From: Candidatus Thorarchaeota archaeon | GTDB lineage: Archaea > Asgardarchaeota > Thorarchaeia > Thorarchaeales > Thorarchaeaceae | NCBI GenBank assembly: GCA_004524445.1 | Contig: SDNP01000036.1 | Span: 1-27,101, forward strand | Direction of reading: 5' to 3' | DNA length: 27,101 bases | Part shown: positions 1,348 through 23,482 of the stretch, one piece after another | How positions within the stretch are numbered: the first letter of the stretch is position 1 | Layout: every line of letters starts with the position of its first letter | Notes under the pieces: model-generated | What the model was told of the DNA's origin: nothing | The model's input: the letters and a program-made list of their open reading frames with translations, nothing else | Databases searched by the model: none | Made by a program: the position numbers and the translations under genes

Positions 1348-1352
1348 GGAGG
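1348..1352 (+). promoter_or_regulatory. Shine-Dalgarno site for the UbiA-family gene
   Basis: GGAGG lies 8 nt upstream of ATG 1361, just after the DUF362 stop. Confidence 0.65.
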
Positions 1353-1360
1353 CTCTAAAC

Positions 1361-2314: not shown

Positions 2315-2321
2315 GTGTAGA

Positions 2322-3005: not shown

Positions 3006-4032
3006 AGATCAAGTTACCCAGGAAGAAGATTCTTTCATTAGTACGGGACGATTGGTTGCCTTCGTTCTAATTGGAATGGTCATCTACCTGCTAATGGCGA
3101 TTCTAGACCAGTGGGACCAAGTCATAGCCACTATTGCGGCGATTGAGTGGTGGTGGATTGTACCCACAATGATGGGGCTTTCATTTCTTAACTATTTGAT
3201 TCGTTATGGCAAATGGCAATACTATTTGCGACAGATTGATGTCAATATTTCACATACAGACAGCTTCAGCATTTTCCTAGCTGGCTTTACGCTGACAATT
3301 ACACCAGGGAAAATCGGAGAGGCAATAAAGGGCTATTTTTGTAGAGAGGTGAATGGTTCCCCTATTGCGAAGACAGTTCCGGTCGTCATCTCTGAGAGGG
3401 TCACCGATCTCTTGGCGATGGTTATAATTTCGGTCTTATCCTTTGCAGCTATTTTAACATCAGGAAATCAGTTGTTGCTGGTATTGTTTGCAGGCGCACT
3501 AGTACTGGTTGGAGCCATTGTCCTCACAAATAGCAAATTCTACAACCGAATTCTGAAGAAACTCACAACCTTTGGACCTTTGAAGCGTTTTGAGGAAAGT
3601 GTTGATCAGGTAGAAGACACGATGGTGAGAACGCTTTCACCCAAGCCCATGATCATAGGCACTTTGATCAGTGTTCCTGGTTGGTTTATGGAGTGCTTAG
3701 AATTATGGTTGCTGTTGAGCATAGTGACAGGGGCCGGACTTCCTGCTTTTACATCAACTTCCTTGTTCCTTCTCGCACAAGCAACATTTGTTCATGCCAG
3801 CGCATCGGCTGTCGGGGCCATTCTTGTCTTTCTCCCTGGGGGCCTTGGAGGCTATGAAATTTATGCAAGAAGTGTTCTGACAACATTTGGAATATTGGCA
3901 GCTGTTGCAACTGCGTCTGTATTCTTAATCCGTTTTGTGACGCTCTGGTTTAGCGTTATTGTTGGATTCGTAGCGCTGGCGTTCGTAACTAGAAGAAATC
4001 GTGAACGTGAATGCCAAACCCAGCAAGCTTAA
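2992..4032 (+). CDS. Flippase-like membrane protein (lysylphosphatidylglycerol synthase TM / UPF0104 family)
   Basis: Family motifs RYGKWQYYL, TPGKIGEAIK, ERVTDL, LPGGLGGYE and LIRFVTLW, with multiple TM segments. GAGGAG at 2978-2983 precedes ATG 2992, which overlaps the end of the PHP gene. Confidence 0.85.
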   Translation: MMVGEDQVTQEEDSFISTGRLVAFVLIGMVIYLLMAILDQWDQVIATIAAIEWWWIVPTMMGLSFLNYLIRYGKWQYYLRQIDVNISHTDSFSIFLAGFTLTITPGKIGEAIKGYFCREVNGSPIAKTVPVVISERVTDLLAMVIISVLSFAAILTSGNQLLLVLFAGALVLVGAIVLTNSKFYNRILKKLTTFGPLKRFEESVDQVEDTMVRTLSPKPMIIGTLISVPGWFMECLELWLLLSIVTGAGLPAFTSTSLFLLAQATFVHASASAVGAILVFLPGGLGGYEIYARSVLTTFGILAAVATASVFLIRFVTLWFSVIVGFVALAFVTRRNRERECQTQQA

Positions 4033-5200: not shown

Positions 5201-8200
5201 TCAATCCCAATCAAGTCCGAGACTCTCGAGCAAAGCTAAGATATCTGCCTTTGACAAGCCTTTAGCTTCTTCTAGAATGAGGTCTATCTCATCCTTCGGA
5301 AGCCCTTTCTTAAGCAGCTTTGACCTTAGATCTTCCATATCCTCTGGTCTTTGTTCAAGAGATTCCTCGCTTGCTGCTTCACTCGGGACTTCTTTCTCAG
5401 CCAGCTCATCAGCCCGGCGAGCTTCCTCCTGTTCTATGACCTCTTTTAGGAATCCGGGGCGCTCACTAGCTTTCATTCGCGATAGGTCACGCCTAAATGC
5501 CTGGATTTCTTCATCACTCAGACCTGTGATTTCCACAAGTCTAGCAAGCAGTTCGTTCACTTCTGGTGCTCTGATATCAATTGGGATTTCGGCCACTTCG
5601 GCCGCGGTCTTCTTTATGGATACAGACTTAATCTCTTCATTGACTGCTGACAAGACGGTTGCTTGCCTGGAGGGGACATCAGCAGGGTCAGGTATTTTGC
5701 CCTTTGAGAGCGCTTTTATCATCTTATTCATTTTTCGAACGATCTTGGGAATGCTCCACACCTTGACATACAGCACAACCAATACTGCAATAATCATCAA
5801 TGATGTACCGCCACCGACTATGGCATTCTGCTGTGCTTGCTGTGCAGGGGTCAAATCGGAGAATACAGTGAATTCCACAGATTGAGTCTGATAATCCTTC
5901 TTGGCAAATTGCACATCGATATACATCGTATATGCCTGCAGAATCTCGAAATACAATTCGTAGGTCCCATTATCATAATCCGTGAGTCTGTCAGGATAAT
6001 ACCTTATTTCGCCTTCTGTGACGCTGACTGTTGGAACTACACCTGTTATGCCAGTATCATGGTCTGTGTCTAAATACGTAATGCGAATTGTGACCGGGGC
6101 ACCCGGGTATGCATCGATTTGGGTCCGAGCATAGATTAAATCTGTGTAGACCTGCCGCACGTTGAGAAGTATTTCATGTGATGGAACTCTGTAGAGATTT
6201 GTGGAAAATGTCAATGCGACACGATACTGACCTATTGGTAGATCACCGGGAACTGAGAAGGAATAACTACCATTTTCAAGAGGAATCAATTCAGTACTTC
6301 CAAGTGTTTCCCAAATTGCTAAAGCGTTGACGCCACCGACCACTTCATTGGTGAATTCATTGACGAGGTTCACGATGACGGTTGCAGTATCATTCACAGG
6401 AATGTCGATTTGAGATATTGCATCTATGAAAGCGTCGGTTGGTTTTACAAGCAGCCCCACAGTAATAGAACTGCTCTGGTAATTGAGCTTTGTAACTGAG
6501 ATTGTAACATCATATAGTCTGGGAATAGAATTATTGACGAAAATGGAAATTACATAGCTTCCATTTTCCAAGTCATATGCGGTTCCTGTGCCGCCTGTCC
6601 ATTCTATATCTACATTGGCACCCACTATTGGGGCATTAGTGTGTGTGTCATTCAGGTAGATTGTGTAATTTACAGTATCTCCTCTATATGCGTCATTCGT
6701 CAATACATTCGCAGCGGTTTCTGTAGGAATAGCCAAGATATTGAATGGCTGAGTTCTAGATGCCTGGGCATAGCCATCTTTTCGCGCAATGACCCTAAGA
6801 TACAGAGTTTGTGCTGAAAAGAGCGAGCTATTTATCTCGCCATAGTAGCGCCCATCTGGAAGCTGTTCCATTGAGGCAGTATAGCCTCCCAGTACTAATG
6901 AAATGTTTGCGCCATCGAGATAGCCACCATAGTAGGTATCGTTGTACTCAACATAGATTCCCAGAACATCACCGTATGTCACTGACAAAGAAGTAGTGCC
7001 TTCCTGCACGAGTATGCTAGTGGGAATTGGGGTCACTATTACATCCACAGATATACTGAGAAATTGATGATTCTCAGCACTGGCATATATCTGCAAGTCG
7101 TAAGTACTAATTGAGAATCCCGAAACATTGAGCGGCCCTTCGTAGAATCCTGTTGTGCCATTTCCGCTTAATGAAACTATCGTATTATTCCAGACCATAT
7201 AGACAGTTGCATCAGCAACAGGTTCATTGTTGGTAGTATCGTTCAGATAGATCCATAATGAAGACTCTGTTTCTCGTACAATCTGGATCGATGAGCTTTC
7301 TGGGAGAATTTGGCCCGTTGCTCTGTAAATTACGAGTGTAAACTCACGTTGTCTTGTTTGATAATACTGTCTGGAAACCGTAATCAGTGGACTGTAAACT
7401 CCGTAGCTCACCTGAGAAGTATCCAGATTTACATAATATGTCCCATTGCCCGCATCGATGCAATTGTACAACGTATCGTTGAACGATATTGTGGCAGTCA
7501 TGCCAGAAAGCAGGGTGCCATAATAGGAGTCTGTGACAGTGAAGCTAACCATCTTCATCTGACCCCAGTCGGAATAGTATGTGGACTTCTGCAAGTTGAT
7601 CTGAACGGTCGGGGCACCCGGCTGAATAGAGGGACTAACTTGGCTTTCTTCATAGTACTGAAGTGTTGCAGTAATGGTGAAACCATATTCTTGTGCAATC
7701 AACCCCGTTGTATTCAGCACTACCTGGTATCGACCTCCTGAGAATTCTACCACAGTGTAACTACGTCCGTACAAGTCCGCCCAATCGCTAGAGATAGTTG
7801 CACCCTCGATTCCTACCTCGTGGTCGGTATCTGTATATGTTACATTAACGCGGAATGGGTCGCCAATGGGAATCACGCCTGCAGGAGGTGTCTCATAAGA
7901 GATTGATGTAAGGATGTTGCGGATTGTTGCAGGGATATTTCTAGCAGTTCGGGATGCGTAAAATGGAATGCCATCCTTGGTAAATGTAACCTCGAAATGG
8001 AGTTTGCCAGTCTGTCCGAATTGCCCACTGGGTATTAACAGGCGATACAAGCCATCTCCTAATTCTATTGTATAATTCACGAAAGAAGTCAGATTAGTGG
8101 AGCTGACAGCTAATTCTGCACCTTCGATTCCTTCATCTGACAAGTAATCGATATAGCTAAGCTCAATAGTGATATTGTCGCCCAGAGGTGTATCTTGTAT

Positions 8201-11200
8201 TAGCGGGAATTGAATCTGCGTCGGACGTTCGATGGTGGTAGCAAGAACCGTCTTAGACCTTGCTGAGTAGTATGGCAGAATGCTGCTTCTGTTAATGAAG
8301 ATTCGAACCGTGTGTCCAGATACAAGTGCTGAATCATCGAGAAGAGTTGAATTGAATTCTATCTCGTAGTAGTCGGAAAATTGGGTCAGTAGGAATGAAT
8401 TATAGGGTATGAGGATTTCACTCTCACCATGTGACAATATGATGTATGATTGGTCAATATCAATTAGTTCACTTGTTAGAAAGTCCTCGAACTTGAACCG
8501 AATTGTCATATTCTCTAGAAAAGCTACGCTACCCGGCGTCTTGGTTATGAGAATTTGAGTTGGTCGTTCGATAACACGAGCATTCATACTTTTGACGACA
8601 TTGGCATAGAAGGGGGCTCCTGACTTCGATGCAGTCACATTCAGCGAGTAATCAGCAGGAGCACCTAATGATGAGCTGTTCAGTAGAATGGTATACTCGC
8701 CGGGGCTGGTTTCTGAAACCCAGTAATCTGTGTTAAAAACAAGAGTCAGAGGATCGGATGTCACAATTATGGATGCACCACTAATGCCCTCACCCGTTGA
8801 ATCATCGGTATAGCTCACAAGTATTGTGAAGTTCTCAAGGTATGCCGTTTCATCCGGGCTCTCGTATCCTAGCTGAGTATTTCTCTCGGAAACTGTCAGC
8901 GTGAAAATATCCAATGCGTCTGCCTCATAATTTCCCCCAGAGTACGATATTGACGCATTGATTGTGAATTGACCCACAGTGCCATTGAAAGATGTATTCA
9001 GAGTGACCCTATAGTGTCCTTGCCCAAGGTATTCGACGTCATAATATGAATCCGAGATATTTAGTGATAGGTTTCCCGTCATGCCGTCGGAACTACCGGA
9101 CAGCCGGTCCGTGTATTGGAAGTCGATAGTGATATTATTTGCATACTGACCCGGAGTGAATGGATCATGAGTCAGCTGGGTAGGTCGCAAGGTAACCATG
9201 ACTAAGAATTCTTTGTTTTGTATGGAGTCATAATATGGTGTACCAGTCCATGTAACGTTCAGATGGAGAGTGAAATCGCCCACACCACCGAGAGATGCAG
9301 AGTCTATTGTAACGAAGAATGTCTGACTTGCAGCGCTGTATGCAATTGTATAACCCACTGTTACCTCGTTGATTGATACCTGCAAGCTAGTTGAGTTCTC
9401 AATTACCATCGTGGTGAGGGAATCAATGAATTGGAATTGTAGAGTAGTTGTTTCACCATACGCCGTTGATGGAACGGGATTAGTATCTAGGTACGTTGGT
9501 CGACTGAGAGTAAGAAGGTTTACTGTGAGGGTCTGATTCTCATAAAGCGGGGCAGTAGCACTACGCCATCCGAAGAAAATCTCGAAGCTAAAGGTACCGA
9601 GCCCTTGCAATCGAGAGCTATTCAAAGTGAAATAGTAGAGACCCGGTTCAGTTACTGATTCCCAGACCACGAAGTCGCTCTGGACAGCAGGATTTTCTTC
9701 TCCTAAAGCTGTCACCATCAGGATGACATTCTCTGAAAAATTCGATATCTGAGATGAATTCACAGCATCTAGATATACAATACTGAATGAGAAGTTCTGA
9801 AGATAGTTCACCGCTACCGGTGCGTTTTCAAGATAGAGGTCTGTCTGACGCCCAATCAATCTGACTCTTGTATTGATTTCCTTTGATTCATATTTTCCAG
9901 ATAGAGAATCAATACTGATTGTGAGATTTTTCCACCCTATGGTTGACCATTGTGTGCTATCTATGGAGATATTGTAATGCCCGGTGCCAAGAAGAGAGTC
10001 GGTTACTGAGAATGTGATAGAAGACAATTCAGGAGTTGCCAGAGTAATCAGCAGATCGCCGGTGTCATTTGAAATACCTACGTCCAAGTCGGTATCCTCA
10101 AAGAAGACAAGGATGATAATATCATTGCCATGGTCGGTCTGCTGTACAGGCTCATCCAGCAGGAACACAGTCTTGTGTTGCTTGACGATTACATCAATGA
10201 CAAATGTCTGGTTTTGTATCTGATATCCTGTCAAATCGAATCGTACGGGATACGTTGCTAATGCATCATTATCAACAGTATAAATAGTTACATTGTAGGA
10301 TCCAGGACTGACTTCTTCCACTGTGTAGTTCATATCACCTTGCACGTGATTAAGGCTCCAGTTCGACACAATTGAGTTATTCATCCCAGTCATAGGTTCA
10401 TCATGGTCTACGTCTAACCATTCCACGGTGAATGAACGTGCCTCGCCAACAGGAATATCCAGAACGTTCTGTAGATATGTCGCTCTAGTATAGAGTTCTC
10501 GCACCGTAACATAGAGAAGACGGCTTTGAGGAAGAATAAAGTCTGCTGTGGCGGTTAGATTCACAACATAATCATCGAGTTCCATACCAGTTGTGTCGAA
10601 AGCCACGTCGAAGGTGCCAGGGCTTCCGCTGACTTCAGCGATATAGTATGGATTGCTCCAATTCGTTGTGAGCTGCCCATCATCAATCCCAGATCCGAAA
10701 TAGTCCTCGAATCGGATTCTGAAGGTCAGATTATCTCCAATTGGACCATCTTGCGAAGGTGAATCAGGAGATATAATGATAATACTCCCATCCAGATTTA
10801 GGTTCACTGTAAGGGTTTCGCTTATCGAATCGAAATTGGGATGATTCCATTCAATATCGATGATATACTGTCCTTTCGCACCCAGGTCGGTTGAGTCCAG
10901 TGTAACAATGTATTCGCCATCACCATTGTCCCCAAACTGGTTTATGCCATCAGTCCAATTGTATGTCATGACGCCCCCTGGTACAGTGACTCCAGGAATA
11001 TCCGTATCATTTACTAATATCCGCACCAGGAACAAGTCAGGATATGTCACGTTTGTGATCCAAGTAGATATGGCATCGGTTGGACTCAACAAAGTGGCAG
11101 TAGAAGAGTGGATAATATTGAAGCTTCGAACAAAGAATCCTGTCTTGTTCCATGCCGACCCTGCCAAGCTATTGTTTAGAATGGCTTGAACCTGCCATTC

Positions 11201-12874
11201 TCCAGCACTGGAATTAGTGCCGAAAGTAAGCACAGAGGTCGCGGCGTGACCTGTTGAATTGATAACTGCAATCTCTGAGTACCATTTAGAGCCTGATGGG
11301 TCGAATACGGTGATATTCACCGGTAGGCCAGAGAATTGAGAGTCATGAACAGTCACGAAACTGGACTTGTCATTAGCTCTCAAATCAATCTGTTGTGCAA
11401 CCTCACCTGTGCCTTCATGGTGCATCAACAGATTCTGGACCATATTTGGCGCATCGCTTCTTATCAGCCAGTATCCCCACCTATCATCGTGATCATATGC
11501 AGGAATCCTTGCCCACCATTCACCCTCATTCCATTCCGATAGACTCTGCGTTGTCAAAAGCGGAGAACCAACATAGTACACATCGCGATTCTGCGGAAGT
11601 GTTATGTTGAAATCGTATCGGTTATCGTATCCGTCTGGAATTTCTGCAAAGAACCAAGTTTCATAATTGACTGCTGAGGCATTTGTGACAGAATATGTTT
11701 CTCCATATGCAGTTGGGCTCTGAGTGAGAACAGTCATGTTATTTGCTCTTGCGTAGAGATTTGTGGTAACTGAGAAGTCAACTCTGATTTGCCTGTCGGG
11801 ACTGGGAGGAAGAGGATCGGGAGTCCAGCTGAACTCAATGGAAACCGGACTGGATGTCCAGGTGCTGGATGGCGTGTATGACAAGTTACCCAACCCATAT
11901 TGAGTTGTACCACCAATTGTGTAATTGTTTACATCATTGTCTTCGGCTTTGAGATTTACATTGCTAGGGGCTGCAAGTGTCTTCAAGTATAGCTCCACAT
12001 TGTCAACTCTAGCCTCAGGGTCTAGATTAGGATCATAGTTTACCGTTTGCTGGCTATACAATCCGACCTCAATATAGACACCATCTGACAAGTCAAACGG
12101 AGTCAAGTCGTCGATTTCAATCAATCCGCTATCAAACCATGCTCGAGCTGTATCAACATCATTGAATGACTTTTGCCACACTCGTTGGTTGTAGTTGCCA
12201 GTTTCAACGGTAACATAAATTGCCACAAATCCATCTCCACCTGACCACGATGAGTCGATCCAATAATCAAGCCTAAGTCCAGCCCAGACTACATCTCCAC
12301 GAGGTACGGTCATGGTTTGTGAAGCATAGGCTATTTTACCCTCATTGGGATCGCCAGTATAGCTAAATTGCGTGCAGTTATCATCAGTGCCATGACCACC
12401 CTCAAGCCATGAGGCGTCACCACTGACATCAGTCAAAGTCCACGACGATGGTGAAGTTTCCATGTCAGGGTCTTGTACCCAGGTTCTATTCTCGGTTAGG
12501 TCATTCACGGACAAAAATACGTTATATCCTTCCCAGCCATTACCCAAAGGAATTTCTACAGATGTATTGGTGGTTGCTTGACTAGTGCTATTGTATGTCA
12601 TCTGATTAGCAGAAAATGTATCAGTTCTGTTCCCGTATTCAGTGACAGGTAGACCGGAGGAACTGCCCTCCCATGACGACATAGCTTCTGATGGTGTCGC
12701 ATAGTTGTTTGTATCAAATTGCGGAGGAGCATCTCTCCTTTCAGTTATAAAGTCATGACTAGGTAGTGCATTCTGTTTGCCAGTTGACCCTGATATGGTG
12801 AAGACAGAGCTGAATATTGGCAATATCAGTATTGCCGCGAGAACGAGTGAAACGATTATTGTTTTCCTATTCAC
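5201..12874 (-). CDS. Giant type I membrane surface glycoprotein A (2557 aa): signal peptide, CBM-like plus MG2-like head, 17 Ig-like repeats, TM helix, 184-aa cytoplasmic tail
   Basis: N-terminus MNRKTIIVSLVLAAILILPIF. The ectodomain is Thr/Ser/Asn/Tyr-rich with many N-x-S/T sequons. Single TM at about aa 2351-2373 (nt 5756-5824), followed by a charged helical tail. GTG start with a perfect SD. Confidence 0.9.
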   Translation of the reverse strand: MNRKTIIVSLVLAAILILPIFSSVFTISGSTGKQNALPSHDFITERRDAPPQFDTNNYATPSEAMSSWEGSSSGLPVTEYGNRTDTFSANQMTYNSTSQATTNTSVEIPLGNGWEGYNVFLSVNDLTENRTWVQDPDMETSPSSWTLTDVSGDASWLEGGHGTDDNCTQFSYTGDPNEGKIAYASQTMTVPRGDVVWAGLRLDYWIDSSWSGGDGFVAIYVTVETGNYNQRVWQKSFNDVDTARAWFDSGLIEIDDLTPFDLSDGVYIEVGLYSQQTVNYDPNLDPEARVDNVELYLKTLAAPSNVNLKAEDNDVNNYTIGGTTQYGLGNLSYTPSSTWTSSPVSIEFSWTPDPLPPSPDRQIRVDFSVTTNLYARANNMTVLTQSPTAYGETYSVTNASAVNYETWFFAEIPDGYDNRYDFNITLPQNRDVYYVGSPLLTTQSLSEWNEGEWWARIPAYDHDDRWGYWLIRSDAPNMVQNLLMHHEGTGEVAQQIDLRANDKSSFVTVHDSQFSGLPVNITVFDPSGSKWYSEIAVINSTGHAATSVLTFGTNSSAGEWQVQAILNNSLAGSAWNKTGFFVRSFNIIHSSTATLLSPTDAISTWITNVTYPDLFLVRILVNDTDIPGVTVPGGVMTYNWTDGINQFGDNGDGEYIVTLDSTDLGAKGQYIIDIEWNHPNFDSISETLTVNLNLDGSIIIISPDSPSQDGPIGDNLTFRIRFEDYFGSGIDDGQLTTNWSNPYYIAEVSGSPGTFDVAFDTTGMELDDYVVNLTATADFILPQSRLLYVTVRELYTRATYLQNVLDIPVGEARSFTVEWLDVDHDEPMTGMNNSIVSNWSLNHVQGDMNYTVEEVSPGSYNVTIYTVDNDALATYPVRFDLTGYQIQNQTFVIDVIVKQHKTVFLLDEPVQQTDHGNDIIILVFFEDTDLDVGISNDTGDLLITLATPELSSITFSVTDSLLGTGHYNISIDSTQWSTIGWKNLTISIDSLSGKYESKEINTRVRLIGRQTDLYLENAPVAVNYLQNFSFSIVYLDAVNSSQISNFSENVILMVTALGEENPAVQSDFVVWESVTEPGLYYFTLNSSRLQGLGTFSFEIFFGWRSATAPLYENQTLTVNLLTLSRPTYLDTNPVPSTAYGETTTLQFQFIDSLTTMVIENSTSLQVSINEVTVGYTIAYSAASQTFFVTIDSASLGGVGDFTLHLNVTWTGTPYYDSIQNKEFLVMVTLRPTQLTHDPFTPGQYANNITIDFQYTDRLSGSSDGMTGNLSLNISDSYYDVEYLGQGHYRVTLNTSFNGTVGQFTINASISYSGGNYEADALDIFTLTVSERNTQLGYESPDETAYLENFTILVSYTDDSTGEGISGASIIVTSDPLTLVFNTDYWVSETSPGEYTILLNSSSLGAPADYSLNVTASKSGAPFYANVVKSMNARVIERPTQILITKTPGSVAFLENMTIRFKFEDFLTSELIDIDQSYIILSHGESEILIPYNSFLLTQFSDYYEIEFNSTLLDDSALVSGHTVRIFINRSSILPYYSARSKTVLATTIERPTQIQFPLIQDTPLGDNITIELSYIDYLSDEGIEGAELAVSSTNLTSFVNYTIELGDGLYRLLIPSGQFGQTGKLHFEVTFTKDGIPFYASRTARNIPATIRNILTSISYETPPAGVIPIGDPFRVNVTYTDTDHEVGIEGATISSDWADLYGRSYTVVEFSGGRYQVVLNTTGLIAQEYGFTITATLQYYEESQVSPSIQPGAPTVQINLQKSTYYSDWGQMKMVSFTVTDSYYGTLLSGMTATISFNDTLYNCIDAGNGTYYVNLDTSQVSYGVYSPLITVSRQYYQTRQREFTLVIYRATGQILPESSSIQIVRETESSLWIYLNDTTNNEPVADATVYMVWNNTIVSLSGNGTTGFYEGPLNVSGFSISTYDLQIYASAENHQFLSISVDVIVTPIPTSILVQEGTTSLSVTYGDVLGIYVEYNDTYYGGYLDGANISLVLGGYTASMEQLPDGRYYGEINSSLFSAQTLYLRVIARKDGYAQASRTQPFNILAIPTETAANVLTNDAYRGDTVNYTIYLNDTHTNAPIVGANVDIEWTGGTGTAYDLENGSYVISIFVNNSIPRLYDVTISVTKLNYQSSSITVGLLVKPTDAFIDAISQIDIPVNDTATVIVNLVNEFTNEVVGGVNALAIWETLGSTELIPLENGSYSFSVPGDLPIGQYRVALTFSTNLYRVPSHEILLNVRQVYTDLIYARTQIDAYPGAPVTIRITYLDTDHDTGITGVVPTVSVTEGEIRYYPDRLTDYDNGTYELYFEILQAYTMYIDVQFAKKDYQTQSVEFTVFSDLTPAQQAQQNAIVGGGTSLMIIAVLVVLYVKVWSIPKIVRKMNKMIKALSKGKIPDPADVPSRQATVLSAVNEEIKSVSIKKTAAEVAEIPIDIRAPEVNELLARLVEITGLSDEEIQAFRRDLSRMKASERPGFLKEVIEQEEARRADELAEKEVPSEAASEESLEQRPEDMEDLRSKLLKKGLPKDEIDLILEEAKGLSKADILALLESLGLDWD
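5855..11110 (-). repeat. 17 tandem Ig-like beta-sandwich repeats of about 100 aa in protein A (protein-level repeats)
   Basis: Recurrent consensus T-x-L...G...(I/V)x(V/F)x(Y/F)xD...(G/P)IxGA...W...(E/D)...GxYx(I/V)x(L/I)x(T/S)...Y, counted by eye over aa ~589-2340. Confidence 0.75.
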
Positions 12875-15800
12875 TCTTCATCACCTCCAAGTTGATCCAA
12901 AAGCGCTTGTATTTCGGGCTTTGTCAAGCCTCTTGCCTGCTCAACCATTAATTCCACTTCGTCCTCTTCAATTCCCATTTTCATGAGCTTGTTTCTGATG
13001 TCGTCCAGTTCTTCTTCTGTGAGCTTCTCAGGACCCATCTCTTCTACAAGTTCTTCTTCTCGTGCAGTTTCTGCGATTTCTTTTGCACGCCGGGACTTCT
13101 CTTGTCTGAGAACCTCGCCAATGAATCCCGCGCGTTCACTTGGTGCCATCTTTTCTAGGTCGTCTCGCAAGACAGACAGGTCATCTGCAGTGAGTCCTAC
13201 AACAACCGCGAGCTCATCAAGAAGCTCTTCAACGTCCAGAATGCTAACATCTAACGTCGATGGCGCTACATCATCAATGACCTTCCTAATGCCTAAAGGC
13301 TCCAAATTCTCATTCATGGTTTTCAGCAGCATGGTTCTCCGGTCATTGACATCTGCTCTCTCTGGAATTCTTCCCTTTTCCAGGGTTGAAACCATTGACC
13401 TAAGTTTTCGAAGGAGCTTGGGAATCGAAAGCACCCTGAAGTACAAGGCTGCTAGTGCAGCCAGCACAAGGAGAATGAGAGTTCCGTTAAAGAATGTCTG
13501 TACCAACAAAGCTTGTTCAGGGCTGATTTCTGAGTAAATGGGGATTGAAACAGTGCTAGACTGATAATCTCTCTTATCTAGGGTTATCTCGAGGGAATAC
13601 AGGGCGGCTTGGCCAGCCACGAATCTGAATACATAGGTTCCATTGTCATAATCTATTTCTTCATCTTCCAGCCGAGTTAGTCCAAGACCAGCCGCTGTAA
13701 TAGTGGATGTCGTATTCGATGCATCCAGAACAGCCATGTCGTGATCCAAATCCCAATATGTAACCGTTACGGAGAATGGCTCACCTGAATATATTATGCT
13801 GGGACTTACATCCCACAATAACTCAGTCAGAATGGCTCTAATTGTAATTTCCACAACAAGTTCTCCGGTACTATAGTTGCCCTTTGTGAGAAGAATTCGA
13901 ACCACATATGGTTGATTTCTGATCTCAAGCCGACTGAGATTAGTTTCGGCTGGACCGAACCGGTAGGAGCCATTTCCTAGATTCGCCAAGCTTAGGCCCC
14001 CAAATTCCCAAATCGCACTCGATGACGCATCACCTATTAGTACGTCATTCAGCGTATCATTGAAAGTGAATATGACCGAGTAGTCATCACCAACTGGAAA
14101 GACCCACTCTTGCGCGCCAATAACCTCTGTAGTGATAGGATTGACCAAGAGCTTAGCTTGAGTTTGTGCTTGTTTGTGTGCACTCTTTGCAAGAGTTATG
14201 GTGATATCATATGGAACCAGTCCTGCGCTAACGACACTTGTATTCACAACAAGCGAATAGTTACCGTTTCCAAGGTCGGAGAGAACTCCTACTGTATCCT
14301 CAAGCTGGAATGTGCTAGTTGCATCGGGAACACCCACAGCATTATGGGTATCATTGAGGAATAGATAGAAGGTTACATTTTCACCATAATACGCTTCTTG
14401 CAGAACATCTCCTAGAACTAAGATTCTTGTGGGGATCGGGTCAAGGTCCAAAGTAAAATCAAGTGATGATGTGGTGTATCCGGGCTTCGAACCAAAGATG
14501 GTAAGAGTCCATGTTCTTAAGTCTAGGCCTGTTGTGTTTACATCGGCCCTATAGTATCCGTCACCAGTTTCAGTTAGATTTCCAGTGATATCACTGACAG
14601 AGAATGAGAGGGTGGCACCGACAACAGGTAGAGAGAGGTCAGTGTTATTGAGAAATACCTGGATTGGTATTACATCTCCAATGATTCCTGAAACAACTGT
14701 TGTGTCTTCGACTGATACTATCTGAGTTGTCACCTCACGTATTTCGATATTAAGCGGAACAGTGAGGGATTTGTAATTCGCAGACTTTGCAGTTACAATT
14801 ATGAGATGATTTCCAGCAGGAACGTCTGACACAATGAAATGTCCAATGTATAGCTCTTGGGTTTCATTCCAAATCAGTGTGCCTTGACCATATGTCCAGC
14901 TGAACGAAACGGTACCTACTGCAATGGATGTGCTATTTGCAGTTACTACATAATCAGCCGTGATTGTCAAATTCTGTCCACTTACAGCTATTACTGGATC
15001 AATATCTGCAGAGAGAGATGATGCCGCTTTTTCAATTCTGATTGAAAAATCACGGCTTCTGGATTCATGGTCCTCCAGCTCAAATGCCACGGTGATCGCA
15101 TATTCACCTGCGCTTACCACAGAGGAAGTTATGTTTCTACCGTAGAGACCCTCACCTAGTTCCTGCAACTCGTAGACAACGCCACCTAGAGTTATATTCA
15201 CATTCCCACCAAGTACAGGGCTGTCATCGCGACTATCCGTGATATTTGCTACGAACTCTATTTCATCCCCCCAAACAGGTGCGATTGGGGTCAACCCCAA
15301 ATTGATTGAGATGGGCGTTGGTGAGAGCAGCAACTCTATAGCCACTGTTCTGTTGACGTGAAGGTACTTAGACGCGTTTATTGAGAAGGAATATGATTGA
15401 GCGGATAGACCTGATGTTTCTAATGTTAGCTGATATATGCCGTTTCCAATTTCTGTCAAGGAATATGGGTTCCCAACTGCAACACCCCAGTCGGTACCAA
15501 CGGCAGCGTCCTCTATCCCGATACCTTGAGAAATGTCGGAGTACGAAATGTTCACAACAATTGTATCACCAGTGTAGTATGTACTACCTGGTTCCAAGTC
15601 TAAAGTCAGTGTCGTCGACACCGGATTCACTGTTAGGCTAAACTGGACAGAAGTCAAGTTGGCATAGAATGGAGAACCTAAATACGTGATGTTCGCTAGA
15701 AAGATGTACTTGCCCAGCTCGCTTAGATCCGTGGTGTTGATGATGATTTCATACGTTCCGTCCCGCCTATCAGTTATCCAGTGCCCAAACGAAGAAACGT

Positions 15801-18800
15801 TCTCACATGAAACTGAAATCTGAGCTCCTGCGATAGGGTCACCACTGAGATAATCCGTGTATTCTATTATTGCGGTTCCATTGAAGTTGATGAATGCAGG
15901 CGGTGTTGATAGTACTGCTGCTTGGGTAAATCTAGCAGTTATAGCGACCTCAGTAGAAGCACTTGCATTGGAATAGAAGGGAGCTTCATCGCCCCATTGA
16001 ATCTCAACAAACAGCGGGTAACCCTGAACAAGTTCAGCAACCAGAATTGTTGAATTTATTGAGATGATGTATACTCCTGAGCTGCCCGTGAGAACATATT
16101 CAGAATCCAGCAGAAGAATATCTGAACCATGTTTCAAGACTAGGTGGCTCTTATTGATGCTAACTAGAGATTCAACAAGAGAGTCTGTCACTGTAATTTC
16201 GAATGTAACATTCTGTAGATATGCAGTATTCAGTGGTGATTCTGAAACGGATAATTCGAGCGGTCGCCGAGAAACCTCAATATCAACACTAGTTGACCGC
16301 TGAGTAAAGAACGGAGAACCTGTGTAGTTCACAATGATATCAATTGCATATGAGCCAAATGTGCCCAATGCTTCTGTTGAAATTCGTATTCTGTAATTGC
16401 CATCACCCAGAGAATCAATCCAGTAATTCACATCTTTTTCTAGAGTTTCAGCTGAGGTTTCTGATGAAATGAAAACATTTGCATTCTCGATGCCAAATCC
16501 ATTATTATCATCAATGTACTGAATCGTGATGTTAGCTTGAGTCAGGAAGGGGGCCAAGTCCGGCAAATCGCTAGTTAACTGAGTACGTCTTCTACTCAAG
16601 GTGAGGTAGAAGTAATCGGAAGCATTGGCCGCAAAGCGATCACCGCCATAGATGATAGTGGCATTGACTCTATAAATTCCAAGTGATGCAAAGGCGGTCG
16701 TATTTAGTTGAATTGTGTATGTGCCATCACCATTGTCATGAACGGTATAGTAATCACTCAACCATGAATCCAGTGTGAGCTCAGCGCCATCCATTCCTGA
16801 TAAGGAGTTGTCATCCAAGTCGGTGTAGAAAAAGTCCAGCGTCAAATTGTTACTGTATTGAACGGAATCGTAGCTACCATGAGTGAGGGAAGTGTACCTA
16901 TACCTTAGCTCTATGGTGATTGCAATTCCTGTTCTATTTTGATAAAAGGGAGAACCACTCCAGATAACATTAAGATGGAATTCAAATGTCCCGACATCGC
17001 CCCAATAAGTGGTATCAATGCTCAAGACAAAGAGTGCACTTGTTTCGAGATAGTATGTATCTAGTACCACGCCACCTTCTGAAACAGATATTTCTATGCT
17101 AGAGCTGTTTTCTATTCTCGAACTGCTTAGAACGTCATTATAGCTGAATGTGAAGTTTACAGGTTTGTCATAGGCTGTAATGGGCAATGGCGTGTACTCA
17201 ATCGAAGTCTGACGGTATATTGTTCGTACAGTAACTGAGAGAGATGCATTTGAATACAGTGGCAATTCCCCTTTCGTCCAGTTAGCGTAGACTCGTAAGT
17301 CACATGTTGTGATTCCTGAGAGATAGTTGGTACTGAATTTGATTTCATACTCTCCCGAACCAATTTCAGTCACCATAATCAACGAGCTATTGAGTTCATG
17401 GCCACTACTCAGTACAAGGACGTACATACTTACATTGAATGCGTACGGACCAGTCGAATTCACGATACCGGAGTCGGCTGCTACGTCCCAGTAGAAAACA
17501 GTGAAGGTAATATTTTCTCCATAGGGGGTTGAAACAGGATTGTTGCCAATAAACAGAGTTGCAGGCGTATCAGATATCCGGACACTGGTTGAGATAGTCC
17601 CGTTTCCATATTTCTCGATCGATCCTGTCCAATTGGCGAAAATCTCAAGGTCTTTCCAACCAATAGAACCCCACTGGTCTGCAGCAATCTCGATGATATA
17701 TTCGCCAAGTGTCGTGCCATTATAGACCGTGTACTCAATTCCTGGAACCTCGTCCGACAAAATGTAAATCAGCACATTATGTCCATTAGCAGTTCCGTTC
17801 CCAATTCCTGTCTCCAGTGTCACGTCATAATAGCTGACCGTTACGATGATAGTGCCTGTATAGGGTGTTGGCTCTATTGGGTTTACTAATGAAAATGTAG
17901 ATAGGTGAGATTGAATATCTACATCTATGTTGAAGGTATGATTTTGAGCCCCGTATTTTCTGACTTGAAATTGAACAGGATGGCTACCTATGAAATCGGT
18001 TTCCACCGAATAGAAGTCAACCCTGTATTCTCCCGGACTTATTTCAGTCACTGTGTAATTTGAATCTCCTTGAGCATGATAGTCAGACCAATTGCAAGAA
18101 ATAGCGCCGGCGGCACCTGTTATTGGTTCGTTATGGTCGGTATCCGTGTAGGTCAATGTTATAGAGCCTTGGGTCCCAACAGGCAATGGTAAGTAACTTG
18201 AAGATACAGCAATTGAGGTAAAGAGCTGTCTAACCTCTAAGAATACTGTAGTCTGAGATGTGATGTAATAATCAGCTACTGCAGAAATGACGATCGCGTA
18301 AGTATCAATCATCGCTGTTGATGTTGATAAGTTGAGCATATAATGACCCGGGCTACCGGCCACGGGACTAACAGAATATTGACCATCTGTCCAATTGCAT
18401 ATGATTGTGGCGTCCGTTATTCCTGCATTATCTTGATCATTGAATACTACTTCAATGGTTGCACTGGAACCTAGCGGAGTTTCAACACTAGGAGCATCTG
18501 GAGAATAGAGAGAGGTTTCTTCAACAATATTGATTGTGAATATTCTCTCTATCGGGTCATAATGCTGTAATGACCATGTGATGGTAATTTCGTAACTGCC
18601 TCTGCCCGGTAAATCAGAGGTATCTAATACAACGCTGTATTCGCCGGTGCCCATGTCGCTTAGAGGCTGCGTGCCCGTAGTCCAATTATATGTGGTTATC
18701 CCTCCGGGTAGCAAATCAGCATTATCGGAATCGTTTACTCTAACTTGTAATAACATCTCTTGACCAAGTGTCAGATTTTTTGTCCATGTACTCTCCGAGC

Positions 18801-20637
18801 CCTTCGGATAAGTTAGGCTCATTTGTGTAGAGTGTTGAATTCTGAAATTCCGAGAGTACATGCCGATATTATCAATCGGGCGTCCTGAAATAGAATCATT
18901 AACTATAGCTTGCACAGTCCAATATCCGACTTCAGCATCTGTCGCGTCAAGGATGATATCCGAACTCTCAGCATAACCAGAACCATTTACCATTGCAGTG
19001 GTTGTGGTCCATATATCTCCGGTCGTATTGTAGAGATAATAGGTTACGGTACATCCCGAATAAATGCTATCAAGCTGTGCCCTTAACCGAATGGCCTCAT
19101 TAGCTCTATAGACCGACGTTGTTTCCCAAGTTGCATCAGATAGCATTCTCAGGTCAGATATCATATTGGATGAGTAAGACTCAATTTTCCAGAACCCGTT
19201 TTGATTACTTCCCGTGACACCTTCATAGACTGAAATATTTAGATAGTCACCAACAATACTCCAGTATGGGAAATTCTCGCCAGGTTTTGAAGGTTCAGCA
19301 ACAGCATCGACTATACGCCCCCCCGGATTTGTCACGTTAAAGTGAAAGACATCAGAATAGCCATTCGGCACGGCCACGTAGTAATAAGAGAGCCATTCAA
19401 CCTGAGAGGCATTTTCGACCTCAAAGTGCTCGCCATAACTACTGACTTCTGCTTGATATAGAGTTGGTTTGTTCAGTTTTTCTGCTGTAAGTGTGATCTC
19501 GGCATCGAATGTGACGAATATGTCAATATCTGGACTTGGTGGAGAGGGAGTTGGCGTCCAAGTGAAATTCGCATCCACTGGACTTGAAGTCCAAGGTAGC
19601 AGTGGCTCTTGTGTGACCTGACCCAAGCTCCAAATGGTATGAGTTCCATTTTCAACATCAAGAACATCTAGACTGTTCACTTGGAGGTTTACATCACTTG
19701 GTGTGGCTCTTGCCTTTATGAAGACCCGGATATTATCGAGTCGAACCTCAGGATAAAGGCGAGGTCTCGCGCCGAATGTTCGGGTTGTACGCATTCCAGC
19801 TTGAATTGTTAGGTTTGGCAAGTTAATCAAGTTATGGTCAGCTTCAACAAGTCCACTTGAATACCAAGTACTGATGCTTTGCACGTCGCTGAATTGGATG
19901 TCCCATAGATGATTTGAAACAACATCATCGGTACCAACTTGAACATAAAGCTCCCAGAAGCCAATAGGAGGGTTTCCCCAATCGTCATATACCCAGTAGT
20001 CTACGGATACTCCAGCCCAAGTGACTTCACCTCTATCAACGCTAATATCTTGCTCAACATAGGCTCTGTCACCCTCATCGAACCGGAAGTAATTGCTGGA
20101 GTCTTGGCCAAGCATCGTGAACTGTGCATATTCACCGGTTATCTGCGATGTTATTGAGTTTGAATAAATGCCAACATCATCCGTACCAGTAGTCCAGTTA
20201 TCAGTGGAACCAAAACCGGGATTCTGTAACCATGTCCTGTTTTCCTGCAGGTTTGTCACATTCACAAACATCTCGGTGCCTTGCCACTGAGCGCCCATAG
20301 GAACCTGAGTAACTTGGTTCGATGTTGAGCTAGTTGCTGAGTCGTATTGCAGGGAGATATCATTGAAGGAATCTACTCGGACTCCATGTTCTGAAGCATT
20401 CTGAGCTGTTGCAGTTCCAGAATGGGTATCAGGTGCCTGAGAAAGTGTGTAGACGTAGAGCGATTCATCCGGAGCCAATGGTATTTTCTCGCCACCTACA
20501 TCCACCATTTTCTCATTGATGACATCCGTATTATCTCCTTCATGAGTACTTGAAGAATAAGATGGCACCATGAAAGATCCAAGCATGAGAATAATCACGA
20601 CAGAAACTAGCACGCAGATTGAGCCTGATTTTTTCAA
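12871..20637 (-). CDS. Giant type I membrane surface glycoprotein B (about 2588 aa), full-length paralogue of A
   Basis: Probable TTG start at 20637 (GGAGG 9 nt upstream) gives the signal peptide MKKSGSICVLVSVVIILMLGSF. Same domain order as A. TM at nt ~13429-13497 and a 185-aa tail. The ORF-track start at 20724 adds 29 residues that do not look like a signal peptide. Confidence 0.9.
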   Translation of the reverse strand: MKKSGSICVLVSVVIILMLGSFMVPSYSSSTHEGDNTDVINEKMVDVGGEKIPLAPDESLYVYTLSQAPDTHSGTATAQNASEHGVRVDSFNDISLQYDSATSSTSNQVTQVPMGAQWQGTEMFVNVTNLQENRTWLQNPGFGSTDNWTTGTDDVGIYSNSITSQITGEYAQFTMLGQDSSNYFRFDEGDRAYVEQDISVDRGEVTWAGVSVDYWVYDDWGNPPIGFWELYVQVGTDDVVSNHLWDIQFSDVQSISTWYSSGLVEADHNLINLPNLTIQAGMRTTRTFGARPRLYPEVRLDNIRVFIKARATPSDVNLQVNSLDVLDVENGTHTIWSLGQVTQEPLLPWTSSPVDANFTWTPTPSPPSPDIDIFVTFDAEITLTAEKLNKPTLYQAEVSSYGEHFEVENASQVEWLSYYYVAVPNGYSDVFHFNVTNPGGRIVDAVAEPSKPGENFPYWSIVGDYLNISVYEGVTGSNQNGFWKIESYSSNMISDLRMLSDATWETTSVYRANEAIRLRAQLDSIYSGCTVTYYLYNTTGDIWTTTTAMVNGSGYAESSDIILDATDAEVGYWTVQAIVNDSISGRPIDNIGMYSRNFRIQHSTQMSLTYPKGSESTWTKNLTLGQEMLLQVRVNDSDNADLLPGGITTYNWTTGTQPLSDMGTGEYSVVLDTSDLPGRGSYEITITWSLQHYDPIERIFTINIVEETSLYSPDAPSVETPLGSSATIEVVFNDQDNAGITDATIICNWTDGQYSVSPVAGSPGHYMLNLSTSTAMIDTYAIVISAVADYYITSQTTVFLEVRQLFTSIAVSSSYLPLPVGTQGSITLTYTDTDHNEPITGAAGAISCNWSDYHAQGDSNYTVTEISPGEYRVDFYSVETDFIGSHPVQFQVRKYGAQNHTFNIDVDIQSHLSTFSLVNPIEPTPYTGTIIVTVSYYDVTLETGIGNGTANGHNVLIYILSDEVPGIEYTVYNGTTLGEYIIEIAADQWGSIGWKDLEIFANWTGSIEKYGNGTISTSVRISDTPATLFIGNNPVSTPYGENITFTVFYWDVAADSGIVNSTGPYAFNVSMYVLVLSSGHELNSSLIMVTEIGSGEYEIKFSTNYLSGITTCDLRVYANWTKGELPLYSNASLSVTVRTIYRQTSIEYTPLPITAYDKPVNFTFSYNDVLSSSRIENSSSIEISVSEGGVVLDTYYLETSALFVLSIDTTYWGDVGTFEFHLNVIWSGSPFYQNRTGIAITIELRYRYTSLTHGSYDSVQYSNNLTLDFFYTDLDDNSLSGMDGAELTLDSWLSDYYTVHDNGDGTYTIQLNTTAFASLGIYRVNATIIYGGDRFAANASDYFYLTLSRRRTQLTSDLPDLAPFLTQANITIQYIDDNNGFGIENANVFISSETSAETLEKDVNYWIDSLGDGNYRIRISTEALGTFGSYAIDIIVNYTGSPFFTQRSTSVDIEVSRRPLELSVSESPLNTAYLQNVTFEITVTDSLVESLVSINKSHLVLKHGSDILLLDSEYVLTGSSGVYIISINSTILVAELVQGYPLFVEIQWGDEAPFYSNASASTEVAITARFTQAAVLSTPPAFINFNGTAIIEYTDYLSGDPIAGAQISVSCENVSSFGHWITDRRDGTYEIIINTTDLSELGKYIFLANITYLGSPFYANLTSVQFSLTVNPVSTTLTLDLEPGSTYYTGDTIVVNISYSDISQGIGIEDAAVGTDWGVAVGNPYSLTEIGNGIYQLTLETSGLSAQSYSFSINASKYLHVNRTVAIELLLSPTPISINLGLTPIAPVWGDEIEFVANITDSRDDSPVLGGNVNITLGGVVYELQELGEGLYGRNITSSVVSAGEYAITVAFELEDHESRSRDFSIRIEKAASSLSADIDPVIAVSGQNLTITADYVVTANSTSIAVGTVSFSWTYGQGTLIWNETQELYIGHFIVSDVPAGNHLIIVTAKSANYKSLTVPLNIEIREVTTQIVSVEDTTVVSGIIGDVIPIQVFLNNTDLSLPVVGATLSFSVSDITGNLTETGDGYYRADVNTTGLDLRTWTLTIFGSKPGYTTSSLDFTLDLDPIPTRILVLGDVLQEAYYGENVTFYLFLNDTHNAVGVPDATSTFQLEDTVGVLSDLGNGNYSLVVNTSVVSAGLVPYDITITLAKSAHKQAQTQAKLLVNPITTEVIGAQEWVFPVGDDYSVIFTFNDTLNDVLIGDASSSAIWEFGGLSLANLGNGSYRFGPAETNLSRLEIRNQPYVVRILLTKGNYSTGELVVEITIRAILTELLWDVSPSIIYSGEPFSVTVTYWDLDHDMAVLDASNTTSTITAAGLGLTRLEDEEIDYDNGTYVFRFVAGQAALYSLEITLDKRDYQSSTVSIPIYSEISPEQALLVQTFFNGTLILLVLAALAALYFRVLSIPKLLRKLRSMVSTLEKGRIPERADVNDRRTMLLKTMNENLEPLGIRKVIDDVAPSTLDVSILDVEELLDELAVVVGLTADDLSVLRDDLEKMAPSERAGFIGEVLRQEKSRRAKEIAETAREEELVEEMGPEKLTEEELDDIRNKLMKMGIEEDEVELMVEQARGLTKPEIQALLDQLGGDEE
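12881..12888 (-). promoter_or_regulatory. Shine-Dalgarno site of gene A, embedded in the last codons of gene B
   Basis: The minus strand reads GGAGGTGA, 6 nt before GTG 12874. The GTG start overlaps the TGA stop of gene B (GTGA, 12871-12874). Confidence 0.8.
13528..18834 (-). repeat. 17 tandem Ig-like repeats of about 100 aa in protein B (protein-level repeats)
   Basis: Same consensus as in A, with 17 units counted by eye. Confidence 0.75.
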
Positions 20638-20646: not shown

Positions 20647-20651
20647 CCTCC
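20647..20651 (-). promoter_or_regulatory. Shine-Dalgarno site for gene B
   Basis: The minus strand reads GGAGG-AACATTCCA-TTG. Confidence 0.65.
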
Positions 20652-21655: not shown

Positions 21656-23482
21656 TTATGCTTCTTCAGGGCTAGTAACCTTCAGGTAGCTGAATCCATG
21701 CTCTCCCTCGTAAGAAACCTCGGCTTCTTGCGTAGGTGTTATCAATAGGACAACCGAATGCTTCTTGACATATTCCGGTGGTGCCTCTTCAACTTTGAAT
21801 TCACCACGAGTGAGGGCAACCTTGTAGCCAGATTTGAGTTTCTTTATCTCAGGATGGACTGATACGTCTATTCCGATTCTAACCTGTAAATCCTCATTCC
21901 TGACAATTAGCAACTCTTGGTCGTCTATTTTCTCAGCAGACAACACATTCATCCATCCTCGAAGCTCTTCGCTCAGCTCCTCCAAATCAGCCGGTTCTCC
22001 ATGAAGCTCTATATCAAGGTCTTTCGCATCTTTCACATTGCCTTGGACCTCATTGAGGATAGGGGTTATTTCAGTTGTGTCCCAGCCCTTTTTCACGAAC
22101 ATCTTCAGCGCATGTTCTGCAATCTTTTCTAATGCAGGCTTAAGTCGGTCATGTGATGATGAGGATATTTTATAGAGATTAAGAAAGCTTGATAGTGCAC
22201 CCTCTTCCTTCCCATATGCTGCTCCTATTTTGTAAGCATTAACCGAGAGTTGCCACGCATTATCATAGTCGTCGAACTGGATACAGTACTTGGCAATATC
22301 ATTCAGCAGTCTGATTGTCACCTCGGGATATTCCAGTTTTGTCTTTGTTAGAGAAAAGCCACCCATGAACTTTCGCAGAATCTGCATAGAAACATACAGC
22401 CCTTCTGAGGTTTCCATCATCTCCGCAAGATTCGTTCTCTTCAGCATTGAATCGTATAGGCTGTAAAAGTAATCTATTTCCTCGTAATCCTCTCTGATTA
22501 ACGCAATTACAATACGGACAAAGAAAACCGATGCTTTTAGTGCGTCGTCTGAAACGCCAGTGAACATGAGCAACCGAAATGCCTCATCACTTATTTTCAA
22601 AGCCTTCTCAACGCCTTCTCGGGTCCCTCTGTATAGGTAGCACATCATCTCAAGGAAGTAGAGAAACAGTGTAAGGTCATTTGCATGGTCCACCAATTTT
22701 TCATGGGTTTGCGAGTCTTCTGTCAATGTCGACACGATTAGGAGGCGTTCAATTTCATTCTGGACAGCAGATATCTCATTGGCTAGTACTTCATATCGGC
22801 CTTCTTGGAAATCTTCAAACATGTCAGGAATTCCAGCCTTGATATCTTCAAGAAAATCGAGAACAAAAAGTGGTTGTCCCTTCGAGAGATCCTTATCGAG
22901 GGTGTCAGCGGGTCGCTTGACAGTTCGCAGTACTCGCATAGCGTGATCTTCAATAATTCTTATTCGGGTGACCGGATCATAAGAAGCACTCCTTTTAATG
23001 CTATATCGAACTTCTTGAGTATAGATTCGCTCCCTAATTTTCCTGAGGTCTTTCTTCAGCTTGTCGGAGTCAATCTGTTCAATGAGCTCTAACATGAAGG
23101 CTGAGCCAACTATCCCTTCCGCTTTCACATTTTTGAGGTCTTGAATTGTATTGAGCAATTTTAAATCGCTTGTGACAACTTTGGAATTCTTGGCACGCAT
23201 GGCTGCAAGAATAAGAGACATATCATTAGGCTGCGGCAGAGAACTCTCTGGTCGATTTATGCTCTCCATGAATTGTTTGATGTCCTTCTTTAAAGTTTCA
23301 TCAATCTTTATTATTTTCTCTACTTCTCGTCGCAAATACCATCTTAATTCCTGGAAAACCTGTCGGGTAATCCACAGTTCAATATCCAGCGCATCCGCGG
23401 CCTCTTTTACAGTATAGACATCCTTTGGCCTATCGCTGAAGCCGCTTATGAAGAAATTTGCATCCAGGTATGCTCTCATCAA
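21656..23482 (-). CDS. PIN-domain nuclease fused to a long alpha-helical region and a C-terminal beta-rich (OB-like) domain
   Basis: PIN acidic tetrad D7 (YLDAN), E45 (VFQEL), D87 (NDMSLI), D106 (VTSD). The middle of the protein is helical. GGAG at 23490-23493 lies upstream. Start is TTG 23482 or ATG 23479. Confidence 0.8.
   Translation of the reverse strand: MMRAYLDANFFISGFSDRPKDVYTVKEAADALDIELWITRQVFQELRWYLRREVEKIIKIDETLKKDIKQFMESINRPESSLPQPNDMSLILAAMRAKNSKVVTSDLKLLNTIQDLKNVKAEGIVGSAFMLELIEQIDSDKLKKDLRKIRERIYTQEVRYSIKRSASYDPVTRIRIIEDHAMRVLRTVKRPADTLDKDLSKGQPLFVLDFLEDIKAGIPDMFEDFQEGRYEVLANEISAVQNEIERLLIVSTLTEDSQTHEKLVDHANDLTLFLYFLEMMCYLYRGTREGVEKALKISDEAFRLLMFTGVSDDALKASVFFVRIVIALIREDYEEIDYFYSLYDSMLKRTNLAEMMETSEGLYVSMQILRKFMGGFSLTKTKLEYPEVTIRLLNDIAKYCIQFDDYDNAWQLSVNAYKIGAAYGKEEGALSSFLNLYKISSSSHDRLKPALEKIAEHALKMFVKKGWDTTEITPILNEVQGNVKDAKDLDIELHGEPADLEELSEELRGWMNVLSAEKIDDQELLIVRNEDLQVRIGIDVSVHPEIKKLKSGYKVALTRGEFKVEEAPPEYVKKHSVVLLITPTQEAEVSYEGEHGFSYLKVTSPEEA

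Follow-up and report, generated by a model that had tools for sequence, protein, structure and literature searches.

A conserved pair of giant paralogous surface proteins with matched tip types in Thorarchaeales: a candidate two-subunit surface tether

Two overlapping genes for giant surface proteins

The window, by which we mean the whole 27,101-nucleotide stretch of DNA analyzed here, is contig C35 of a 2.8-Mb, 90% complete genome of a thorarchaeon, an archaeal relative of eukaryotes (the host genome). Two intact open reading frames, gene B upstream and gene A downstream, fill positions 5201-20637 on the minus strand (Table 1). A preliminary description had read them as intact paralogs of about 2.6k aa that align end to end, and this is borne out by a single BLAST alignment of 2608 columns at 31.7% identity and by dN/dS values, measured against a same-genus genome, of 0.09 for A and 0.08 for B. 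TTG 20637 is taken as the start of B because the orthologue from the same genus has ATG at that position; GGAGG lies 9 nt upstream of it and the signal peptide follows directly.

Table 1. Features of the A/B locus, in coordinates of the window
Feature	Position	Strand	Remarks
Gene B (upstream)	12871..20637	-	2588 aa, TTG start, single-pass type I membrane protein
B ribosome-binding site GGAGG	20647..20651	-	
B head, type II	18784..20445	-	residues ~65-618
B jelly-roll (CBM/MAM-like) domain	19708..20220	-	residues ~140-310, by alignment to A
B stalk, 17 Ig-like repeats	13498..18783	-	residues 619-2380
B transmembrane helix (13479-13423) and cytoplasmic tail	12874..13479	-	
Coupling junction: GGAGGTGA within the last Gly-Gly codons of B, and GTGA stop/start overlap	12871..12888	-	
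Gene A (downstream), paralog of B	5201..12874	-	2557 aa, GTG start
A head, type II	11060..12697	-	residues ~60-605, model pLDDT 90.5
A jelly-roll domain, CBM/MAM fold	11978..12490	-	residues 129-299
A stalk, 17 Ig-like repeats	5840..11059	-	residues 606-2345
A transmembrane helix (5821-5765) and tail	5204..5821	-	model pLDDT 88.5

The stop codon of B and the start codon of A overlap as GTGA (12874-12871), and GGAGGTGA lies at 12888-12881, 6 nt ahead of the GTG of A, which confirms the overlap and the Shine-Dalgarno sequence reported before. Since overlaps of this kind are frequent in the host genome (76 of 686 co-directional neighbours, or 11%, about half of them with a Shine-Dalgarno sequence), the overlap by itself is unremarkable; its conservation is not chance. 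Overlap and Shine-Dalgarno sequence are retained in 47 of 48 pair junctions from Thorarchaeales genomes, which are kin to one another, and the first codon of the terminal Gly-Gly of B is GGA in 18 of 18 cases, the figure for other sites of these genes being 16-43%. This bias suggests that the ribosome-binding site embedded in the end of B is under selection. The 3' end of the 16S gene, which holds the anti-Shine-Dalgarno sequence, was not found in the host assembly. One metatranscriptome run yielded short contigs of a near relative on A, B and their neighbours, with none across the junction, and such contigs cannot tell level, strand or joint transcript.

Architecture of the two proteins

A and B share a plan consisting of a signal peptide, a beta-sandwich head with a CBM/MAM-like jelly roll, 17 Ig-like repeats, a transmembrane helix and a tail. 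This is the plan outlined previously, tail length of about 185 aa included, and the iterated HMM and the sequence features agree on it. In both proteins the hydrophobic N-terminus covers residues 6-24 and there is one C-terminal transmembrane helix (A 2352-2370, B 2387-2405), while the iterated HMM finds 17 repeats of ~100 aa in each, with the same result from three independent seeds. N-glycosylation sequons number 69 and 72 in the two proteins, all but one of them outside the tail, and cysteines number 2 and 6. Scaled from a reference of 54 domains in ~250 nm (10.1101/2025.07.22.663070), the 17-repeat stalk would measure about 75 nm if extended.

The head of A and its first repeat are modelled as beta domains (pLDDT 90.5), in the order of a long-stranded beta domain with the jelly roll inserted, a further beta domain and an MG2-like domain. 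Compared with PDB structures, the jelly roll reaches Z 12.0 to 8zqf (rmsd 4.0, 164 aligned), Z 11.4 to the MAM domain 8yt7 and Z 11.1 to the CBM16 domain 2zew, so that CBM and MAM tie at Z 11-12; residues ~476-588 match the MG2 domain of alpha-2-macroglobulin (Z 10.3), and the Pfam MG2 match is weak. Sugar binding would not follow from the modelled jelly-roll fold alone. Searches of the PDB with the head sequence gave no match, NCBIfam gave none for A or B, leads from an ESM Atlas feature search with the head were all under 0.9, and the best row of the shape search, at TM 0.45, was a Promethearchaeota cluster.

The tails, of ~185 aa each, are acidic-ended and all helical in the model, and belong to the best conserved parts of the two proteins. 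In the model of the A tail (pLDDT 88.5), two juxtamembrane helices are followed by two three-helix units, which are related to each other (E 4.6e-5), with an acidic linker between them. Comparison with the PDB by sequence, Foldseek and VIA returned nothing beyond the level usual for helical bundles (best Z 6.9), the Pfam matches (RecX_HTH1, Pex14_N and similar) were weak and all below cut-off, and an ESM Atlas feature search gave no usable match. When the units were compared with UBA/CUE domains, the three-helix units were found in the model and B has MGI, as against the MGF-type loop of UBA, and UBA is absent from the 25 Pfam families most often matched by a set of 61 members. The tail, found in 261 clusters among 1.8 billion proteins, thus appears from sequence and model to be a folded domain outside all known families. 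Complex prediction with the transmembrane-plus-tail segments of A and B gave a score of 0.01 (mark 0.32), which speaks neither for nor against contact between them. The terminal three-helix unit is repeated several times in the relatives P0001, P0020, P0056, P0069 and P0117-P0119, which suggests a modular binding or spacer unit.

Inheritance of the pair across Thorarchaeales

We surveyed 87 Thorarchaeales genomes for the pair. The A-type tail is present in 67 of them and the B-type tail in 54; all 54 genomes with B also have A, and none has B without A. Among the 13 genomes with A only, the locus is cut by a contig end in 12 and breaks ~590 nt from a contig end in the thirteenth. Each gene is single copy, except in one genome with the arrangement B-A-B-A, and the order B to A is fixed; some good genomes, such as G003 (96% complete), are without the pair in their assembly. 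Every complete copy of A and B has exactly 17 repeats, spanning 1644-1674 aa; other paralogs with the same anchor have 4-44. As the genomes are kin, the counts describe inheritance under constraint and not 48 separate events.

In trees of both stalk halves, with a sister-family genome included, A and B are split with support of 98 and 97. Because the split holds with that genome included, the duplication that gave rise to A and B would be older than the divergence of the two families sampled. The test put forward in the preliminary description, namely whether A-type and B-type proteins form two separate, co-occurring clades, thus comes out in favour of the pair, with order, coupling and stalk length kept. 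An independent duplication in the sister family had been suggested by a first C-terminal tree, which paired the two genes of that genome, and was rejected when longer stalk trees assigned them to A and B.

The locus has stable flanks (TyrRS, cupin and flippase-like genes) and a genome-like GC content. Were the two genes cargo of a mobile element, as are the tandem giant genes of aloposon type, the stable housekeeping flanks, the genome-like GC, the single copy and basal halves that follow the genus would be hard to accommodate; no tRNA is found in the window or any pair locus, nor any ParA/MinD-like neighbour, and we regard this origin as very improbable.

Several neighbours deserve mention. 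Convergent with the pair, window positions 255-4032 (plus strand) hold overlapping DUF362, UbiA, PHP and flippase-like genes; the UbiA gene is close to decaprenyl-phosphate phosphoribosyltransferase, just below cut-off, and the cluster possibly serves lipid-linked pentose glycosylation of surface proteins. The downstream neighbour of the pair in most relatives is a flippase-like or TyrRS gene. On the other side, in 30 genomes that include both tip types (see below), a gene of > 478 aa (L200:6417-7850, minus strand) lies directly upstream of B and in the same direction; it has no Pfam or NCBIfam match, is absent from the window, has a homologue on host contig C43 and is a candidate partner. The window itself encodes upstream of the pair a protein of 608 aa that consists of a PIN-like domain at the N-terminus and a long helical portion (21656-23482, minus strand) and is found upstream of the pair in genus g7 too, and a 376-aa leucine-rich-repeat protein (25234-26364, minus strand) 4.6 kb upstream of B. 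An open reading frame behind a partial B (L097:9931-13233), A-like for 255 aa and then unrelated, is probably a scaffolding artefact.

Matched tip types

The heads fall into two types, and in the window both A and B are of type II. Across genera, type II heads are 59-63% (A) and 52-60% (B) identical to each other, as against 36-48% to the rest. Tip types are matched in all 45 scorable pairs, 14 of them II/II and 31 non-II; left out of this count were G243, whose locus is broken and chimeric, and G199, G145, G193, G240, G016, G112 and G225, each of which has one head missing. In trees of the basal halves, type II turns up at three positions, with nesting inside genera g5 and g2. The basal half of B separates the two tips along the DNA, and for this segment a single type II clade can be rejected (p-AU 1e-49), with at least 3 changes needed. 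The type signal stops at repeats 3-5 in both genes, the basal repeats track the genus, and within g5 the flanking genes are the same for both tip types.

When four close g2 genomes are compared over the first 450 aa, differences affect 35-75% of four-fold sites and 7-38% of residues in A and B alike; along the stalks the values are mostly 5-45% and 1-15%. The heads of A and B are near saturation at four-fold sites among close kin, with dN well below dS. Since dN stays that far below dS, the head variants look like old alleles moved by recombination rather than products of fast positive selection. These patterns are most simply read as joint selection on the two tips, with the tip facing a variable partner. 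The matched tips, which are a new result for this pair, would thus be indirect evidence that A and B work together; the independent events behind them are few (at least 3), and part of the matching can be put down to linkage.

How linkage might do so is illustrated by the genome with two pairs (G002:C22; L002, L003), in which two whole pairs stand in tandem, type II followed by non-II, with basal halves more alike than the tips. This is a possible intermediate of tip exchange: from such a state, a whole pair could be transferred, the basal halves converted and one pair lost, and the tips would end up matched with no contact between the proteins needed. The second pair of this genome, together with G307 and G225, may represent a third jelly-roll type.

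On the strength of this tandem state one could regard A and B as two separate homomeric or monomeric adhesins in one operon, their order, overlap and matched tips being kept by linkage and whole-pair exchange. The 11% of host-genome neighbours that overlap would fit such a history, as would the common unpaired family members, C25 of the host genome included, and an NHL propeller that has been gained or lost in B alone with A unchanged (both described below). We think it unlikely, as both proteins have held to exactly 17 repeats since before the family split while free paralogs vary, neither gene is ever lost alone, and recombination between homogenized B halves has left no mixed pair. Joint action of A and B, in one form or another, is probable.

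A linked two-gene locus with matched types, deep head polymorphism among close kin and a conserved stalk might also serve recognition in trans, in which matching A and B, each on a different cell, bind one another for kin or self recognition and the tails relay the contact. Equal length would suit a spacer between membranes, the head-plus-Ig plan resembles the RPTP-mu ectodomain (Z 11.1, rmsd 15.5), and TgrB1/TgrC1 are an example in which one polymorphic membrane protein is the receptor and a second is its ligand (PMC11088635, PMC12142906). Virus pressure or a change of substrate, however, predict polymorphic outer domains equally, dN in the heads lies far below dS, the tail is the same on both partners and has no catalytic or known signalling domain, and the concordance of A and B alleles is resolved at the level of the two types; trans recognition is on these grounds improbable.

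A wider Asgard family

A profile of the transmembrane-plus-tail region matches 180 of 301 genomes of the phylum and a head profile matches 170 of 301, with no profile match in the searched genomes of several families. Examples from other families have a signal peptide, a head, 0-10 repeats, a transmembrane helix and the juxtamembrane motif, some of them with the last three-helix unit. By this sequence evidence, the A/B pair would belong, as a single branch, to a broader Asgard family that shares its anchor. Single, unpaired members are common in this family, and among relatives that share both head and anchor the number of repeats ranges from 0 to 44; the host genome itself encodes a third full-tail paralog of > 4918 aa (C25) and further distant members.

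Added domains are found in some of these proteins. Seven B orthologues have an NHL propeller of ~290 aa inserted at residue ~157, within the jelly roll, and longer paralogs contain ConA/LamG and DUF2341 domains. The NHL insert occurs in scattered lineages, part of g5 included (L004, L005, L007, L010, L013, L015 and L019), and also in L169, L172 and L173, with none seen in A. Another tandem pair (L066:874-17170; 2655 and 2659 aa) has the same juxtamembrane motif and a tail of ~450 aa, with no overlap. Minimal members of ~870 aa, with a head, 0-1 repeat, a transmembrane helix and a tail with the last three-helix unit (L069:4337-6943 and L073:2849-5467), are encoded one in a complete 1.4-Mb genome and the other in another family, and would be good small targets for structure determination.

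A possible mode of action

An operon-like unit, a coupling signal under selection, export and anchoring, a stalk fixed at 17 repeats and a conserved folded tail can be read from the sequences themselves; the evidence for pairing is wholly evolutionary. The account we favour, although we put it slightly short of an even chance, is that A and B form one two-subunit surface tether with a variable tip and a cytoplasmic docking tail. Coupling by the overlap would yield similar amounts of A and B, each exported by its signal peptide and anchored by one predicted C-terminal helix. Two glycosylated rods could then stand side by side, ~70-80 nm tall if extended, with their heads meeting at equal height, and the paired heads would make up a composite, lectin-like binding tip, its sequence varied by recombination. 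A head-to-head fit would force the tips of A and B to change jointly. In the tail, membrane-lying helices and the two three-helix bundles might cluster the rods or dock them on a cytoplasmic scaffold, so that the mode of action would be that of a heteromeric adhesion or recognition tether, not of an enzyme-linked receptor. The jelly-roll head and the NHL or ConA/LamG modules of relatives are suggestive of a tether. Cultured Asgard cells are covered by long unordered surface proteins and 3-nm fibres, with no lattice (PMC9834061; 10.1101/2025.07.22.663070), and none of the Asgard cells imaged in these reports is a Thorarchaeon.

The same genomic data are accounted for nearly as well by a two-component, S-layer-like canopy, in which the heads of A and B interlock as a lattice or mesh held high by the Ig stalks, to form a cell coat and not a tether. 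Fixed equal stalk length, coupling, matched heads and ~70 sequons in each protein all fit a canopy, as does a stable chromosomal place beside TyrRS and the UbiA/flippase-like cluster; variable heads would be consistent with escape from viruses, and the known PySLP, of 292 kDa, combines 19 Ig-like domains, a stalk and a transmembrane anchor with a diverging outer face (10.64898/2026.08.21.746120). Yet a PySLP-type tail is short and basic, compared with the folded, conserved 185 aa here, no lattice has been seen on cultured Asgards, none of them a Thorarchaeon (PMC9834061, PMC11284389), relatives with the same head and anchor vary between 0 and 44 repeats, and by a crude codon-bias score actin stands at the 98th percentile and the two genes of the pair at the 66th-70th. 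A canopy seems unlikely to us.

If A and B do form a tether, its interest lies partly in the cell biology of the group. Asgard cells crawl by actin-dependent adhesion, for which no transmembrane link is named in the reports (PMC9834061, PMC13716822), and the host genome encodes an actin. As a candidate for such a link in Thorarchaeales, the pair is near-universal and sits at a single locus; other Asgard families share its head, repeat and juxtamembrane motif. In a stronger version, which we rate as rather unlikely, A and B would bind each other only with matching tips, as a receptor in cis or in trans between cells, and the tail, of a family found in several Asgard lineages, would couple this contact to the cytoplasm, possibly to the actin cytoskeleton; if that were true, allele-matched A and B would be a prokaryotic design parallel to the adhesion and self-recognition receptors of eukaryotes. 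The matched, recombining tips make matched-only binding of the heads a sharp and cheap test, and the tail, as a compact and well-modelled domain, is usable as bait.

Comparison with known systems

In our literature searches we found neither the pair nor its tail nor the matching of the tips described in any paper. The LOKIASV2_19760-type proteins of Nerearchaeum marumarumayae, compared here by description, are Asgard proteins with a signal peptide, a long Ig/Fn3-like array, a membrane span and, on some, propeller heads; these adhesin-like proteins are single genes, for which no fixed pair, matched tips or conserved folded tail is reported (Nobs et al., 10.1101/2025.07.22.663070). Tandem, mutually similar giant genes in Thorarchaeota MAGs are mentioned in passing by Wu et al. 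2022 (PMC8813620), with no architecture, clades or function given, so that comparison is again by description; they may be members of the A/B family or its paralogs of 3-6 kaa. The aloposon giants Otus and Ephialtes of that study (PMC8813620) have 3,000-6,000 aa and lie at tRNAs with a ParA/MinD gene, unlike A and B with their 2,600 aa and stable locus, and a downstream tRNA integration site and an upstream ParA/MinD cluster are absent from the window and the pair loci.

Among eukaryotic systems, TgrB1/TgrC1 of Dictyostelium are likewise encoded as a linked pair, and the two polymorphic single-pass proteins have to match (PMC11088635), a feature that A and B possess at the level of two types; receptor and ligand differ there, whereas the same tail is on both proteins here, and no homology is claimed. 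Type IIB RPTPs (RPTP-mu, MAM-Ig-FN3) share with A and B a jelly-roll head on an Ig/FN3 rod, one transmembrane helix and a cytoplasmic part, although A and B have 17 repeats and no phosphatase domain, and the likeness is one of fold only, at ~10% identity. The preliminary description had compared the design with integrin or cadherin receptors, an analogy that proves loose: the single pass, the long ectodomain and a conserved tail are shared, as would be the heteromeric state if the favoured account holds, whereas motifs and domains are not. At E<=0.1 there is no Pfam match in A or B to integrin FG-GAP, VWA/betaI with MIDAS or EGF, the integrin tail motifs GFFKR and NPxY are in neither tail, and neither the cadherin EC motifs DxNDN/LDRE nor cadherin Pfam families match. 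A and B moreover are paralogs with a jelly-roll head, whereas integrin alpha and beta are not paralogs of each other.

Closer in plan is PySLP of Pyrobaculum arsenaticum, with ~290 kDa, an array of 19 Ig-like domains, a stalk and a distal region, a C-terminal transmembrane helix and a divergent outer face; it differs in its homomeric lattice, short basic tail, membrane-proximal hairpin and richness in cysteine, and is confined to Thermoproteota in that study (10.64898/2026.08.21.746120). Signal peptide, tandem Ig-like domains and C-terminal transmembrane helix are all present in A and B; the short basic tail ending in Lys is not, their tail being 185 aa long, folded and acidic-ended. Bacterial fibrillar adhesins (SiiE, LapA-type repeats, PrgB, SraP) also combine a tandem Ig-like stalk with distal CBM- or lectin-like domains, and gave weak multi-domain Foldseek matches. 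They are single-gene proteins, anchored in the wall or outer membrane, with a variable number of repeats, and are not known to have a cytoplasmic domain. Judged by fold, A and B have the Ig-like stalk, the distal binding-type domain and the anchor of this plan. By the features tested, then, the pair appears to be neither integrin, cadherin, RPTP nor aloposon, and its predicted architecture suggests a mode of action like that of fibrillar Ig-repeat adhesins or of colossal S-layer proteins.
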